This document shows positions 17,336-30,929 of a stretch of DNA of 64,000 nt, piece by piece. Source of the stretch: Candidatus Babelota bacterium (GTDB lineage Bacteria; Babelota; Babeliae; Babelales; JACPOV01); contig JAKJAQ010000002.1 of the NCBI GenBank assembly GCA_022707425.1, positions 29,868-93,867 of the forward strand, written 5' to 3'. The position numbers and the translations under genes are program-made. A model generated the notes under the pieces. It made no database searches and was not told where the DNA came from. It worked only from the letters and a program-made list of their open reading frames with translations. The number at the start of each line of letters is the position of its first letter. Position 1 is the stretch's first letter.

Positions 17336-17433
17336 CCTTCTTATTTCTTTAGGAAAAACTAGGCATTTTTTTTTAATTCATATACCTTATCTGCATCATA
17401 AAAAAAGTTATGATTCAACAACAGGGAAGTACA

Positions 17434-19344
17434 ATGAAGCGTCATCATTTTTTTTATTTTTTTTGTATCATTTCTTTTCAATTTTCTTTTATCACCGCAC
17501 AAGAAATCAAGCATGAATGTGGACTTGCGTTAGTTCGTCTTCTCAAACCCCTCGAATTTTATCAAGAAAAGTACGGCGACATGATGTGGGGATTAAACAA
17601 AACTTGTTTATTGCTTGAAAAACAGCGAAACCGTGGCCAAGATGGTGCGGGAATCGCTGTTATAAAATTTGAAATGCCGTTCGGCAAACATTACCTTAAA
17701 CGTTTACGCTTTGCGCAAGATTATGCGCTTGAACATCTGCTCGCATTTATTTCACAAAAAATAAAAGAATTTCCTACACGCACAATAATCGATTCATCCG
17801 CGTTGAAAGAGCAATTTGACTATGCAGGTGAAGTTTATCTTGGTCATGTACGGTACGGCACCTATGCAGGTCGCGGGATTGAATTTTGTCAGCCATGTGT
17901 TCATAAAAATAGCATTCCGGCAAAATGTTTAACCATTGCAGGCAATTTCAATATGACCAACAGTGACGAGTTGAAAAATGAAATCACCCAATGGGGGGTC
18001 GCACCAACGAGCGTTTCTGATACACAACTTATTTTACATCAACTCAGTTATCTTCTAGATCAAGAAGATGAAAAAAAATCACACGACAATGAATCATGTA
18101 CTATTGCATCTATTATTTCACAAGCAGCACACAATTGGGATGGCGGCTATGTATTTGCAGGGATGTTAGGTAATGGTGATGCATTTGTTTGTCGCGATCC
18201 GTCGGCAATCAGACCTGGTTTTTATTTTTTGAATGACGAAGTTTTTGCAGTGGCTTCAGAACGCGCAGCATTGGCCAGCGTTTTTAATATTTCGTATGAA
18301 GATATTAAAGAAATTCCCGCCGCTCATGTTATTTCGGTAAAAAAAGATGGAACTATTTCAATAACACCGTTTATGAATCCATTTGTCGCACGCCAATGTG
18401 TGTTCGAACGAATTTATTTTAGTCGCGGTCATGATCCTGCAATTTGTCAAGAACGAAAAAACTTAGGTAAACAACTTGCCGTGCGCATATTTGAGGAATT
18501 GAATCAGGACATTTCTCATACTCTCTTTTCATTTATTCCAAACACCGCAGAAATTTCCTTTTTGGGATTGACCGAAGAGCTTTCGCAACTATCATTTTTT
18601 CATCATCGCCAATTACTCTTCACCAAATTTCATGATCAGATTTCTGCTCAAGAAATTGATCAGCTTATGAACAAAAAAATACGCGCAGCAAAAGTAATTT
18701 ATAAAGATCAAATGCTCCGCACATTTATTAGTCATGAATCAACTCGTTCTGACCTTGCTTGCAACGTCTATGATATTTCAAAAGGTATCGTAAATGACGA
18801 TGATACACTTGTTGTTATTGATGATTCGATTGTACGCGGTACAACACTTAAAAATTCAATCATGAAACAATTAATTCAATTGCAACCGGCGCACATTATC
18901 GTTCTCAGTGCTGCACCTATGATTTTATATCCTGACTGTTATGGCATAGATATGAGTCAAATTGGTCATCTTATTGCGTTCAAAGCTGCGGTAGAATTAA
19001 CGCACGAGCGCGGTAATGCAAAATTATTTGATGAAATTTATCAAGAATGCATTGCACTACAAAAAGAAAAACATATTCAACACAATCCACTCAAAAAAAT
19101 ATATGAACAATTTTCTCAAACAGAACTTGAACAAAAAATTGCGCACCTTGTTACTCCCAATGTAAAAAACTGGAACGGATCAATTCGTGTTTTGTTTCAA
19201 ACAATCAATGGACTTCATGCAGCAATACCAGATTTTACCGGAGATTGGTATTTTACCGGCAATTACCCGACACCAGGCGGTTATAGAGTGTTAATAAACA
19301 GTTACATTAATTGGTACAACGGCATCGAAAAAAGATCCTATTAA
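17434..19344 (+). CDS. purF: amidophosphoribosyltransferase (long form) with hydrophobic N-terminal leader or propeptide
   Basis: AGGGAAG lies 4 nt upstream of the ATG at 17434; an alternative ATG is at 17410. The leader MKRHHFFYFFCIISFQFSFITAQEIKHE precedes the catalytic Cys in CGLALVRL. NRGQDGAGIA and the PRTase loop VVIDDSIVRGTT are present. Confidence 0.85.
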   Translation: MKRHHFFYFFCIISFQFSFITAQEIKHECGLALVRLLKPLEFYQEKYGDMMWGLNKTCLLLEKQRNRGQDGAGIAVIKFEMPFGKHYLKRLRFAQDYALEHLLAFISQKIKEFPTRTIIDSSALKEQFDYAGEVYLGHVRYGTYAGRGIEFCQPCVHKNSIPAKCLTIAGNFNMTNSDELKNEITQWGVAPTSVSDTQLILHQLSYLLDQEDEKKSHDNESCTIASIISQAAHNWDGGYVFAGMLGNGDAFVCRDPSAIRPGFYFLNDEVFAVASERAALASVFNISYEDIKEIPAAHVISVKKDGTISITPFMNPFVARQCVFERIYFSRGHDPAICQERKNLGKQLAVRIFEELNQDISHTLFSFIPNTAEISFLGLTEELSQLSFFHHRQLLFTKFHDQISAQEIDQLMNKKIRAAKVIYKDQMLRTFISHESTRSDLACNVYDISKGIVNDDDTLVVIDDSIVRGTTLKNSIMKQLIQLQPAHIIVLSAAPMILYPDCYGIDMSQIGHLIAFKAAVELTHERGNAKLFDEIYQECIALQKEKHIQHNPLKKIYEQFSQTELEQKIAHLVTPNVKNWNGSIRVLFQTINGLHAAIPDFTGDWYFTGNYPTPGGYRVLINSYINWYNGIEKRSY

Positions 19345-19359
19345 AGCGAGAGGCTTTTT

Positions 19360-28366: not shown

Positions 28367-29602
28367 GTGAAGTTACTGTTCATAAGTTGTATTTTCTCAT
28401 TTTGTTTATCACTGAATGCAAACGTATCAATTGGTTCGCCTCTCACGCCATCAGCAACGAAAGTATTGCTCTGCGGCGGTGGCGAATTAGGCAAAGAACT
28501 AGTTATTGAATTGCAGCGATTTGGTGTGGAAGTTATTGTTCTTGATCGATATGATAATGCACCGGCAATGCAAGTTGCACACCGCAGCCATACACTTTCA
28601 ATGCTCGATGGAAATGCATTACGCACCATTATTGAATTGGAACAACCAAACATTATTGTTCCTGAAATTGAAGCGATCGATACACAAACATTGTTAGAAC
28701 TTGAAAGCGAAGGATACACGGTCATTCCAACTGCTCGCGCTGTGCATATTACTATGAACCGTGAACGCATTCGCCAACTTGCACACGATCTTCAATTAAA
28801 AACATCAGCATTTAAATTTGCACATTCGTATGATGAATACCTATCTGCAGTCGACAAACTTGGTTTTCCTTGCGTTGTAAAACCAACGATGAGTTCTTCA
28901 GGAAAAGGCCAATCAATTATTCACAACAAACATGAAATTGATCCTGCATGGAACTTTGCACAAACTGGCGGTCGCGCGCAAACAAACAGCGTCATTGTTG
29001 AAGAATTTATTCCGTTTGATTACGAAATTACGCTGCTCACCGTGCGTGATGCGCAGGGAAACACTCATTTTTGTGAACCGATTGGCCACAAACAAATCGA
29101 CGGCGATTATCGCTCTTCATGGCAACCACAACCAATGAGCAACAATTTATTAGATCAGGCAAAGAATTATGCAAAAACAATTACTGACGCTCTGGGTGGC
29201 CGCGGCATTTTCGGCGTTGAATTATTTGTAAAGGGTGATGAAATTTATTTCAATGAAGTTTCTCCACGCCCGCATGATACCGGGATGGTTACGCTTATTT
29301 CACAAAATAGTTCTGAGTTTGGATTGCACGCACGCGCATTACTTGGTTTACCAATTGGTACCATTAAACACTATGGACCGAGCGCATCATGCGCAGTTCT
29401 TGTACACGGTAATTCAGAAAATGTTCAATTTTCAAATCTTGATACTGCACTATCTATTCCAGATTCGCAGCTGCGCTTATTTGGAAAACCAAATGTTCAT
29501 GGGCAACGCCGCATGGGTGTTGTTCTTGCACAAGGTGAAACCATCGAACAAGCGTTAGAACGAGCGCAAATAGTGGCGAGCAGATTATCAATTTCACTTT
29601 AA
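28367..29602 (+). CDS. purT: formate-dependent GAR transformylase (ATP-grasp) with signal-like leader
   Basis: AAAGGAG lies 7 nt upstream of the GTG at 28367. The ~21-aa hydrophobic extension (V)[20 protein letters not shown] precedes [23 protein letters not shown]. This segment and [16 protein letters not shown] match E. coli PurT as I recall it. Confidence 0.9.
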
Positions 29603-29615
29603 AAAAGGGAAAAAT

Positions 29616-30929
29616 ATGTTGATTACGTTTATTTTAGCTTCATTGTGCAATTTTTTATGCATTAATGCCGATCAAATTGCAGAAGGCAAAACGAAAATAA
29701 TTCGTCGGTATGCAGCTGACCAAACAAAAGTAATTATTGAATCAAAAGATGACATTACCTCAGGCGATGGGTACAAAAAACATGATATAATGCGCGGTAA
29801 AAGTGCACTTGCAAATCAAACAACATGCAATGTGTTTCGTTTACTTAAACAATGCAATATACCAGTTGCATTTGATGAGCAAATTGATCACAATAAATTT
29901 TTAGCACCCCAGTGCACTATGATTCAGTTGGAAGTTGTCGTGCGGCGCGCTGCACACGGCTCATGCTTAAAACGTTATCCACATCTGCGTAAGGCTGATG
30001 TTTTTCCACAACTCATCGTTGAATTTTTTCTTAAAACAAGTGGTAGACAATGGCAAGGAAGTCCAATCCCAAAAGATGATCCATTCATGATTATCAACAA
30101 TAATAAAGCGGATCTTTATCTACCCGATGCACCATTGCATTCACAACAACCGTTCTTAACGCTTGATACCTTTCCCTGCGATCAGCAACCAGAACTGTAT
30201 GATCACATGGCGCTTATTGCAAAAAAAACATTTCTTATTCTAGAAAAAGCGTGGCAACTGCAAGGTGGCCAGTTAGTTGATTTTAAAGTTGAATTTGGTA
30301 TCGATGCACACGGCAATTTATTGCTTGCTGATGTTATCGACAACGATTCATGGCGTGTTTTAAAAAATGAAAACTATATCGACAAACAATTTTATCGCGA
30401 TGGTGGTGAGTTAGATGCGGTAACAAAATTGTATGAACAAGTACAATCGCTAACCGCACGTTTTTCATTGCCAACGCAACAATTAATTATTTGGCGTGGA
30501 TCGGAAAAAGATGTCGTAGAACCGTTGCTTGAACAATGGAAATCGGCTCTTTCATGGCTTGATGTAAAAATTGTAACGATTTCGATGCATAAAGAACCGG
30601 TCAAAGGATATCAAGAATTGCAAAAAGCTCTGCAAGAAATTCCCAATTCAGTTATTGTTGCATTCATTGGGCGCAGTAATGGTGCGGGACCAACATTGGC
30701 AGCACAATGCACGGTGCCCGTAATTACCGTACCGGTAAATTGGCAACAATTTCCTGAAGATGTGTGGTCATCATTGCGCGCACCAAGTGATGTTCCTGTC
30801 CTTACCATTCTTGAACCCAATAATGCACTATTGGCTGCATTACAAATATTGGCAATGAACAACCCAGCATTGTATGCACAATTGAGAATGAATCAAGAAA
30901 AACGATTAATCAATACTTCGATTAATTAA
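29616..30929 (+). CDS. purC-purE: bifunctional SAICAR synthetase / class II AIR carboxylase (PAICS-like fusion)
   Basis: 437 aa. AEGKTKIIRRY, FLAPQCTMIQLEVVVRRAAHGSCLKRYP and LADVIDNDSWRV form the PurC half. GRSNGAGP and DVWSSLRAPS form the class II PurE half. SD AAGGGA. The N-terminus MLITFILASLCNFLCINA is hydrophobic. Confidence 0.9.
   Translation: MLITFILASLCNFLCINADQIAEGKTKIIRRYAADQTKVIIESKDDITSGDGYKKHDIMRGKSALANQTTCNVFRLLKQCNIPVAFDEQIDHNKFLAPQCTMIQLEVVVRRAAHGSCLKRYPHLRKADVFPQLIVEFFLKTSGRQWQGSPIPKDDPFMIINNNKADLYLPDAPLHSQQPFLTLDTFPCDQQPELYDHMALIAKKTFLILEKAWQLQGGQLVDFKVEFGIDAHGNLLLADVIDNDSWRVLKNENYIDKQFYRDGGELDAVTKLYEQVQSLTARFSLPTQQLIIWRGSEKDVVEPLLEQWKSALSWLDVKIVTISMHKEPVKGYQELQKALQEIPNSVIVAFIGRSNGAGPTLAAQCTVPVITVPVNWQQFPEDVWSSLRAPSDVPVLTILEPNNALLAALQILAMNNPALYAQLRMNQEKRLINTSIN

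Follow-up and report, generated by a model that had tools for sequence, protein, structure and literature searches.

Signal-peptide-like leaders on purine-biosynthesis enzymes of a Candidatus Dependentiae bacterium

Five proteins encoded in one purine-biosynthesis cluster, PurF, PurM-PurD, PurH, PurT and PurC-PurE, each open with a leader of 16-22 residues that has the n-region, h-region and c-region (n-h-c) architecture of a signal peptide. The cluster (purF, purM-purD, purH, an EamA/DMT transporter gene, purQ, purS-purL, purT and purC-purE) spans positions 17410-30929 of a 64,000-nucleotide stretch of contig JAKJAQ010000002.1, which is called the window throughout and has a G+C content of ~37%. 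The source organism belongs to Candidatus Dependentiae (TM6): window proteins are identical to products of 'Candidatus Dependentiae bacterium ADurb.Bin331' (OQA35656-58, OQA35110-11). An earlier note on this DNA had proposed Sec-type leaders on these cytosolic enzymes, and the proposal came through the sequence-level tests described below, with the reservation that a positively charged n-region is missing from two of the five leaders. We put at about one in two the probability that the leaders are genuine, translated Sec/signal peptidase I (SPase I) signal peptides on ordinary, constrained purine enzymes, and that export is their function. The genes of the cluster are as follows.

17434-19344, + strand: purF, long-type amidophosphoribosyltransferase; start backed by a Shine-Dalgarno (SD) motif; longest open reading frame (ORF) from 17410; NCBI product of 636 residues
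19360-21765, + strand: purM-purD fusion; GTG start
21755-23641, - strand: purH, eukaryote ATIC-like 5-aminoimidazole-4-carboxamide ribonucleotide (AICAR) transformylase/inosine monophosphate (IMP) cyclohydrolase
23679-24632, - strand: EamA/DMT-family transporter within the pur cluster; adjoins purH or purQ in relatives too
24652-25443, - strand: purQ, leaderless; true start probably M12 (MKPRVCILK)
25407-28256, - strand: purS-purL fusion, leaderless
28367-29602, + strand: purT, formate-dependent glycinamide ribonucleotide transformylase; GTG start, ATG in the sister genome L034
29616-30929, + strand: purC-purE fusion, PAICS-like architecture

These identities are upheld by Pfam and NCBIfam profile matches. 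Against the family equivalog profiles, PurT scores 585 bits (cut-off 502), PurD 520 (288), PurM 422 (236), PurL 558 (526) and PurQ 210 (178); PurH, which is ATIC-like, scores 507 bits, slightly below its cut-off of 528. PurF retains its catalytic Cys, and the pur enzymes have ratios of non-synonymous to synonymous change (pN/pS) of 0.14-0.18 against L034 (GCA_041907565.1, ~93% protein identity). Judged by these measures, the enzymes are functional and under purifying selection, not degenerate paralogues. A tblastn search of the window found no PurB, IMP dehydrogenase (IMPDH), PurP or GuaA in it. The leaders, with the short PurF segment that follows one of them, are these (a slash, here and below, marks a putative or known processing site).

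17434-17499, + strand: PurF leader MKRHHFFYFFCIISFQFSFITA, 22 residues; unrelated leaders in P0379, P0385, P0389, P0461, L030, L035 and L036
17500-17520, + strand: residual PurF propeptide QEIKHE and the catalytic Cys codon (17518-17520); leaderless homologues begin MSDEIKHE/C
19360-19407, + strand: PurM-PurD leader (M)ILFIILFSLMSTLNA, 16 residues; SD motif GAGAGG at 19348-19353; the L031 fusion carries a leader of its own
23588-23641, - strand: PurH leader MKKRLLLLISFFSLNGFC, 18 residues, then M-E; leaders in nine more relatives
28367-28420, + strand: PurT leader, 18 residues (initiator M plus 17); a low-confidence detached helix in the AlphaFold2 model
29616-29669, + strand: PurC-PurE leader MLITFILASLCNFLCINA, 18 residues

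The leaders are N-terminal add-ons: family profiles and leaderless orthologues begin 16-28 residues into the leader-bearing proteins, just as the earlier note had it. Position 1 of the PurM profile TIGR00878 falls on residue 19, position 1 of the PurH profile TIGR00355 on residue 27, position 3 of the PurT profile NF006766 on residue 21 and position 2 of SAICAR_synt on residue 21 of PurC-PurE; the catalytic Cys of PurF is residue 29 from the SD-backed start. In an AlphaFold2 model of PurT (mean predicted local distance difference test score, pLDDT, 87) the fold starts at residue 32, and residues 1-20 (pLDDT ~46-50) contribute a lone, detached helix (3-14); the model shows just that the leader is outside the fold. 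PurQ and PurS-PurL open straight into conserved sequence. The five ORFs with their N-terminal sequences, and the lack of leaders on PurQ and PurL, were found as first described. The leader of PurM-PurD, originally put forward as a possibility, is now supported by a GTG start with an SD motif, by a sister genome that is identical there, and by the distant PurM-PurD fusion of L031, whose own leader ends immediately 5' of the common QSVTYQQAGV core.

The placement of ribosome-binding sites argues that translation starts at the SD-backed upstream codons and so includes the leaders. An SD-like tetramer lies between -18 and -4 at 33 of 52 ORF starts in the window, as against 5% of random positions, and all five leader-including pur starts are preceded by an SD motif: AAAGGAG at 28354-28360, 6 nt ahead of the purT GTG at 28367; AAAGGAG at 23647-23653 (- strand) for purH; AAGGGA at 29605-29610 for purC-purE; GAGAGG at 19348-19353, ahead of the purM-purD GTG; and GGGAAG ahead of the purF ATG at 17434. 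No SD motif precedes the internal in-frame candidates, PurH M19, PurM-PurD M11, the TTG at codon 34 of purT and the TTG at codon 10 of purC-purE. What had been claimed for purH, purT and purC-purE, that the leader-including starts have SD sites of their own, thus holds and extends to purM-purD and purF. The purT frame, as also claimed, offers no alternative: there is no ATG, GTG or TTG between codons 1 and 34, and codon 34 is already within the first conserved strand. In L034, moreover, purT starts with ATG where the window has GTG. The purF start did need correction, from 17410 to the second ATG at 17434 (MKRHH...), which is the more likely one on the strength of its SD motif and the 636-residue NCBI product; the longest ORF is over-extended by 8 codons. 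Pooled over four leaders, pN/pS against L034 is 0.22, compared with 0.16 for the mature parts, on small counts (4.5 synonymous and 3.5 non-synonymous changes).

The kind of leader can be judged region by region. The uncharged hydrophobic cores are 13-15 residues long, shorter than a transmembrane (TM) span. Scored on a simple Hessa scale that takes no account of position, the best 19-residue sums of the five leaders are +2.6 to +6.7 kcal/mol, and those of 42 relatives' leaders have a median of +4.2, with 2% under 0.5; for comparison, the TM helices of window membrane proteins have a median of -0.06, the leaderless pur N-termini score +13 to +15, and anchor-like N-termini score -1.8 (the superoxide dismutase-like ORF 5281-6096) and -0.7 (ORF 34107-35261). 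All five c-regions have a small residue at -1, a small or aliphatic one at -3 and no Pro at the site. The putative cleavage sites are ITA/Q in PurF, LNA/E in PurM-PurD, GFC/M in PurH, LNA/N in PurT and INA/D in PurC-PurE, chosen by a rule-based picker that is partly circular; the leaders of relatives finish in A, S or G adjoining the conserved core. The n-region is positive in PurF (MKRHH), PurH (MKKR), PurT (MK) and most relatives, and for PurH, PurF, PurT and most relatives the charge distribution, with C-terminal flanks that are neutral or acidic, predicts an N-in/C-out topology. The best reading of these features is that the leaders are Sec-type, SPase I-cleavable signal peptides rather than membrane anchors.

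Three other classes of N-terminal signal were considered and rejected. The lipobox of SPase II substrates, [LVI][ASTVI][GAS]C, is unmatched: N-G-F-C in PurH and L-Y-S-C in L030 PurF do not fit it, and in the other leaders +1 is never Cys. The twin-arginine motif of Tat substrates (S/T-R-R-x-F-L-K) occurs in none of the five leaders and in none of the relatives inspected. An N-terminal signal-anchor needs a span of ~19 residues or more, and by their Hessa sums the leaders are too short and too polar to provide one.

PurF presents a special case, as its catalytic Cys must become N-terminal. The earlier note had held that a second processing step is needed after the leader is removed; this stands, and the residual QEIKHE is the usual short propeptide of the N-terminal-nucleophile (Ntn) enzymes, a peptide ahead of the catalytic Cys that has to be removed (QEIKHE/C in the window, MSDEIKHE/C in leaderless homologues). 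What the window protein adds to this familiar arrangement is the 22-residue hydrophobic leader ahead of the propeptide. In the PurF proteins of L030, P0378 and P0389 the leader directly abuts the catalytic Cys, and there the leader cut itself could expose Cys1. A leader-bearing PurF-like protein, P0394, reads ...GSHPS/GIAFVRL where the catalytic Cys-Gly is expected and may be a glutaminase-dead paralogue.

How much weight a leader can bear depends on how often one arises by chance. The lenient n-h-c detector and the Hessa sum are crude stand-ins for trained signal-peptide predictors: the detector picks out 13% of random stop-free peptides with the same base composition and 17% of short spurious ORFs, so that a single leader is weak evidence. 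The leaders recur in diverged orthologues, however, and this excludes chance. In relatives 47-69% identical to the window proteins, the leader sequences are unrelated and the architecture is the same (14 PurT, ~28 PurC-PurE, 10 PurH and ~10 PurF). All 14 PurT matches with a hydrophobic N-terminal extension end it in A or S right before SIGTP, in front of mature parts that are 65-69% identical (for example MKKFCLLILFLTTSLHA/ETSIGTP and MKIFQVIFLVLSLVSCFS/QEASIGTP), and ~100 proteobacterial-type PurT proteins (393 residues) are leaderless, beginning M-x-x-IGTP. Leaders precede the AEGKTK of PurC-PurE in ~28 of the best 120 homologues, one of which, P0165, is named Candidatus Dependentiae by NCBI; the others among these 120 have no leader, and their named sources are Verrucomicrobia and Patescibacteria. 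PurH has a leader in the window, in two near-identical cluster members and in the nine nearest distinct bacterial relatives (47-55% identity); the eukaryotic ATIC and other bacterial PurH matches next in the ranking are leaderless. For PurF, leaders are found in P0378, P0379, P0385, P0389, P0394, P0461, L030, L035 and L036, and PurD or PurM-PurD leaders in L031, L032, L033 and L035. The phylum of most leader-bearing contigs is inferred from low G+C content and from neighbouring ankyrin and leucine-rich repeat (LRR) genes that themselves have leaders. As a negative control, ~70 metagenomic PurC-PurE loci of high-G+C bacteria, in which purC-purE stands apart from other pur genes, yielded no genuine leader; automatic calls in L040, L054 and L094 proved to be ORF over-extensions. 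Three low- or mid-G+C contigs of the same scan carry a leader. The earlier note had said that leaderless close relatives and unconserved extra codons would count against its proposal; what was found instead is leaders in dozens of diverged orthologues.

A leader-bearing PurT also stands alone among genes of chlamydial rather than Dependentiae appearance (a DsbH-type thioredoxin, a TPR_3 type III chaperone-like protein) at 10001-11233 of L003 (GCA_021772355.1), a genome that may be chlamydial; this could reflect transfer of a leader-bearing gene between intracellular lineages.

The spread of leaders over the pathway was surveyed in loci from eight further genomes (L001, L003, L030-L033, L035 and L036). 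PurT has a leader in six of six loci with purT, PurF in three of three, stand-alone PurD in three of three (as does a second PurM-PurD fusion), PurH in two of two and PurC-PurE in two of three, the one without being that of L030; for stand-alone PurM the count is one of four (L001, L030 and L032 are without). The L030 locus (10090-13736) also encodes an IMPDH with the leader VNIHKKISVGLLLCCLITSIRA/EVTIIEQGLSYDDV and an SD motif AAGGAG, together with two archaeal-type PurP (DUF1246/DUF1297) genes and GuaA, all leaderless.

The Dependentiae as a phylum live as obligate intracellular parasites of protists. In the window, roughly every second long ORF begins with a leader-like N-terminus (29 of 52 by the n-h-c heuristic, polytopic membrane proteins included), and a GH1 glycosidase is among the leader-bearing products. 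The same kind of leader is found on a C2H2 zinc-finger protein, a WD40 protein, two ankyrin proteins, a GNAT acetyltransferase and an AAA ATPase:

12326-12823, 14293-15774, 9851-10525, 15875-16690, 37497-38267 and 59282-60829, all - strand: leader-bearing ORFs of eukaryote-interaction type

These are likely to be host-directed effectors; leaders on such proteins make sense only if the proteins reach the host side. The leaders are also selective, because the housekeeping cytosolic proteins of the window have none: phosphoenolpyruvate synthase/pyruvate phosphate dikinase, a release factor, GatA, DNA ligase, phosphoribosyl pyrophosphate (PRPP) synthetase, a phosphoribosyltransferase and a protein of the orotidine monophosphate decarboxylase family. 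In Chromulinavorax destructans, the one cultured, fully analysed member of the phylum, signal peptides are predicted on 44% of coding sequences and on 78% of ankyrin proteins, and this secretome has been read as a Sec-dependent apparatus for host manipulation (PMC6561590); type II secretion genes are conserved across the phylum (PMC4776705). Phylum and kind of leader are the same as in the window. The difference is that Chromulinavorax has no de novo purine pathway and relies on nucleoside salvage, and leaders on biosynthetic enzymes are undescribed in the literature found. An early comparative study had reported nucleotide biosynthesis in no TM6 genome (PMC4776705); the presence of a pur cluster in Dependentiae already exceeds the earlier descriptions of the phylum.

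Taken together, genuine signal peptides with export as their function would work as follows. Translation begins at the SD-supported upstream codon, as the sequence evidence shows; the n-h-c leader would then engage the Sec translocon, and the enzyme domain would cross the inner membrane; the leader would be cut after the small-x-small site adjoining the conserved core. In PurF the left-over QEIKHE would be removed autocatalytically, exposing Cys1, as in homologues that begin MSDEIKHE/C. The exported enzymes would add to the very large complement of host-directed proteins that these parasites export through Sec. Outside, more speculatively, they might use host PRPP, ATP, glutamine, glycine, formate, aspartate and formyl-folate, and the bacterium might take the products back. 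The earlier note had remarked that export of such enzymes 'would make no metabolic sense'; for an intracellular parasite the objection falls away, in that host ATP, PRPP, glutamine and formate lie outside the inner membrane. It had offered three explanations, secretion towards the host, membrane tethering and dual isoforms: the first would fit best and a membrane anchor worst, and dual isoforms are possible only for PurH and PurM-PurD.

Several observations weigh against export. Signal-peptide-like N-termini arise from DNA of this AT-rich composition at a non-negligible base rate (13-17%), and the n-regions of the window PurC-PurE (MLITF...) and PurM-PurD (MILF...) have no positive charge. Large ATP-grasp enzymes with several domains would be unusual cargo for Sec. 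Above all, the pathway appears split: leaders are absent from PurS-PurL, PurQ and PurB (three distinct genomes each), from stand-alone PurM in three of four genomes, from PurP and GuaA (L030) and from PRPP synthetase (this window only), and the genes of all of these are intact and conserved. L030 even alternates, with leaders on PurF, PurT and IMPDH and none on PurM, PurC-PurE, PurB or PurP. Because phosphorylated intermediates do not cross membranes, this leaves a simple two-compartment scheme unexplained, and it is for this reason that we place no more than about even odds on export as function. Three ways out are possible: host enzymes may fill the missing steps, the leader-bearing enzymes may be dually localised, or the EamA transporter of the cluster may move an intermediate.

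That transporter gene is kept inside the pur cluster in diverged relatives (8223-8855 in L032, 3656-4621 in L033, 5302-6255 in L034); its product is a candidate carrier of a purine intermediate, a nucleotide or folate. The neighbouring PurH (21755-23641, - strand) finds its best matches after the Dependentiae clade among animal and fungal ATIC proteins (46-48% identity), and its eukaryotic ATIC type suggests gene exchange with eukaryotes. The C-terminal half of the protein resembles stand-alone clostridial AICAR transformylases; a contig scan with PurH returned only AICAR-transformylase genes of Clostridia and one Pirellulales contig, and no Dependentiae.

If the leaders do serve export, a bolder step is to suppose that most of de novo purine synthesis takes place outside the cytoplasm, with PurF, PurD, PurT, PurM, PurC-PurE and PurH (and IMPDH in some members) Sec-exported to the periplasm or the host cytosol and nucleotides imported. 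The formylglycinamidine ribonucleotide synthase and adenylosuccinate lyase steps would then have to be covered by host enzymes or by an unknown route, and a purinosome would form at the parasite-host, possibly the parasite-mitochondrion, interface. This is a tentative proposal, and we would expect it to fail more often than not.

That the leader-bearing enzymes are present in two places, an exported pool and a cytoplasmic one arising by internal Met initiation or inefficient export, with the full pathway still running inside, is unlikely but deserves a hearing. With two pools, the pathway could work in the cytoplasm although PurS-PurL, PurQ, PurB and Prs are leaderless, and the weak n-regions of PurC-PurE and PurM-PurD could make export inefficient. 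Retained Met residues also speak for it: an ancestral Met stands right after the leader in the window PurH and four relatives (A/ME or A/MD) and in L032 PurD (D/MKVLIIGSGG), PurM-PurD has M11, and among 70 signal-peptide-like proteins 15 have a Met before the first charged residue past the h-region, against a background of 1.4%. But the internal ATGs of PurH and PurM-PurD lack SD motifs, and in PurT, PurC-PurE and PurF no in-frame start lies between leader and core. The Met at +1 can be explained equally well as a relic of the leaders' origin; it is frequent, too, on ankyrin and LRR proteins, which would have no use for a cytoplasmic isoform.

Less probable than two pools is a tether, in which uncleaved leaders fix the enzymes to the inner membrane in a metabolon that the leaderless partners join by protein contacts. 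Leaders on a subset of steps only, in a pathway that must run in one compartment, would be accounted for in this way, and a DMT/EamA membrane transporter is conserved within the cluster. The leaders themselves do not look the part: the cores of 10-15 residues, at +2.6 to +6.7 kcal/mol against the TM median of -0.06, sit in extensions of just 16-22 residues that end in a small-x-small site at the enzyme core. Moreover, the N-in/C-out topology predicted for PurH, PurF, PurT and most relatives would put the catalytic domains in the periplasm, apart from the leaderless partners.

Slightly less probable again is that the leaders are a tolerated by-product: read-through into AT-rich 5' DNA gives tails rich in Lys and in Phe, Leu and Ile, and the enzymes remain cytosolic. 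The 13-17% of random or spurious ORFs that pass the lenient test speak for this, as do the gain and loss of leaders among relatives (PurC-PurE of L030 and PurM of L001, L030 and L032 are without) and neighbour-joining trees of PurT, PurC-PurE and PurH that show no single clean leader-bearing clade, at a resolution too low to count gains and losses. Against it, the architecture is kept on the same enzymes at 47-69% identity though the sequence has been replaced, leader pN/pS is about 0.2, and the housekeeping cytosolic proteins of the window are leaderless; a hydrophobic tail behind a positive n-region would, besides, normally engage the signal recognition particle or Sec, so that neutrality is unlikely. 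An annotation artefact, with true starts downstream and the hydrophobic stretches untranslated, might be suspected since the ORF lister always picks the first start after a stop and the longest PurF ORF is indeed 8 codons too long, but it is effectively refuted by SD motifs placed only before leader-including starts, by a purT with no alternative start whose GTG is ATG in L034, and by signal-peptide frames preserved in dozens of diverged orthologues.

The junctions between leader and enzyme bear on where the leaders came from. In the count of 70 signal-peptide-like, non-polytopic ORFs, drawn from the window and seven related loci, 13 of the 15 Met residues that immediately precede the first charged residue after the hydrophobic core belong to an M-E or M-D pair. 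Examples of the leader/Met-Glu junction in the window are 30985-31605, 32293-32892, 12326-12823, 14293-15774, 9851-10525 and 23588-23641 (all - strand), and there are others in L031-L034. The pattern suggests that leaders were grafted upstream of ancestral starts, or else that Met at +1 was selected; PurH (C/MESETQRE, and A/ME in relatives) and L032 PurD (D/MKVLIIGSGG) identify the junction Met as the ancestral start. In PurF the ancestral MSDEIKHE has been shortened to QEIKHE behind the leader. From these junctions the leaders appear to have arisen by extension of genes into 5' sequence so rich in AT that it encodes Lys together with Phe, Leu and Ile as a matter of course.

Two of these examples, 30985-31605 and 32293-32892 (both - strand), are paralogous leader-bearing proteins of ~200 residues that flank a 196-residue ORF just downstream of the pur cluster; the pair is conserved in L034. 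Elsewhere in the window, ORF 5281-6096 (+ strand) places an Fe/Mn superoxide dismutase domain behind a TM-like N-terminal anchor (Hessa sum -1.8), unlike the pur leaders; by its sequence it would be a membrane-anchored or exported Fe/Mn superoxide dismutase, which is unusual.

Metabolic enzymes that have acquired export signals are known from other intracellular parasites. In microsporidia a signal peptide on the ATP-using hexokinase, and on some other enzymes that are normally cytosolic, directs delivery to the host side, where host metabolism is exploited (PMC6460350, PMC3976299, PMC6152459). The likeness is that of an intracellular parasite with a signal peptide absent from free-living orthologues, and the sequence features expected of such a case are present here. 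The differences are that microsporidian signals are of the eukaryotic endoplasmic reticulum type, are found on single enzymes, mainly hexokinase, and have had secretion demonstrated experimentally, whereas in Dependentiae the leaders are bacterial and Sec-type, they occur on five to seven enzymes from a single anabolic pathway, and export is predicted. In Chlamydia trachomatis most, but not all, enzymes of glycogen metabolism are secreted into the inclusion lumen, where host substrates are used and the product is imported (PMC4829429, PMC9251005, PMC3722199). This is a precedent for a pathway exported only in part, but it relies on type III secretion without a hydrophobic leader and makes a storage polymer without external ATP-dependent ligases; in Dependentiae, unstable, phosphorylated intermediates would be involved. 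Full-text literature searches turned up no account of purine enzymes with signal peptides, whether in Dependentiae or in other intracellular bacteria. The gain of signal peptides by parasite enzymes is thus of a kind already known; what is unusual here is that the enzymes are bacterial, that they make up most of an anabolic pathway and that the leaders are conserved throughout a lineage.

Earlier descriptions cast Dependentiae as parasites that draw energy and nucleotides from the host and make no nucleotides themselves. In this lineage the set of purine genes looks complete, and most of the purine enzymes have export-type leaders that have been kept through deep divergence. The leader/Met-Glu junction may mark a route by which proteins are recruited to the secretome, through 5' extension into AT-rich upstream DNA. 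If the leaders are not used for export, the signal-peptide predictions for the phylum ('44% of the proteome') and the effector catalogues derived from them need review. If they work, they would represent a new form of host exploitation, in which a parasite sends out its own biosynthetic enzymes to spend host ATP and precursors; and were the pathway indeed externalised, this would be the first case of signal peptides relocating an anabolic nucleotide pathway in a bacterium.

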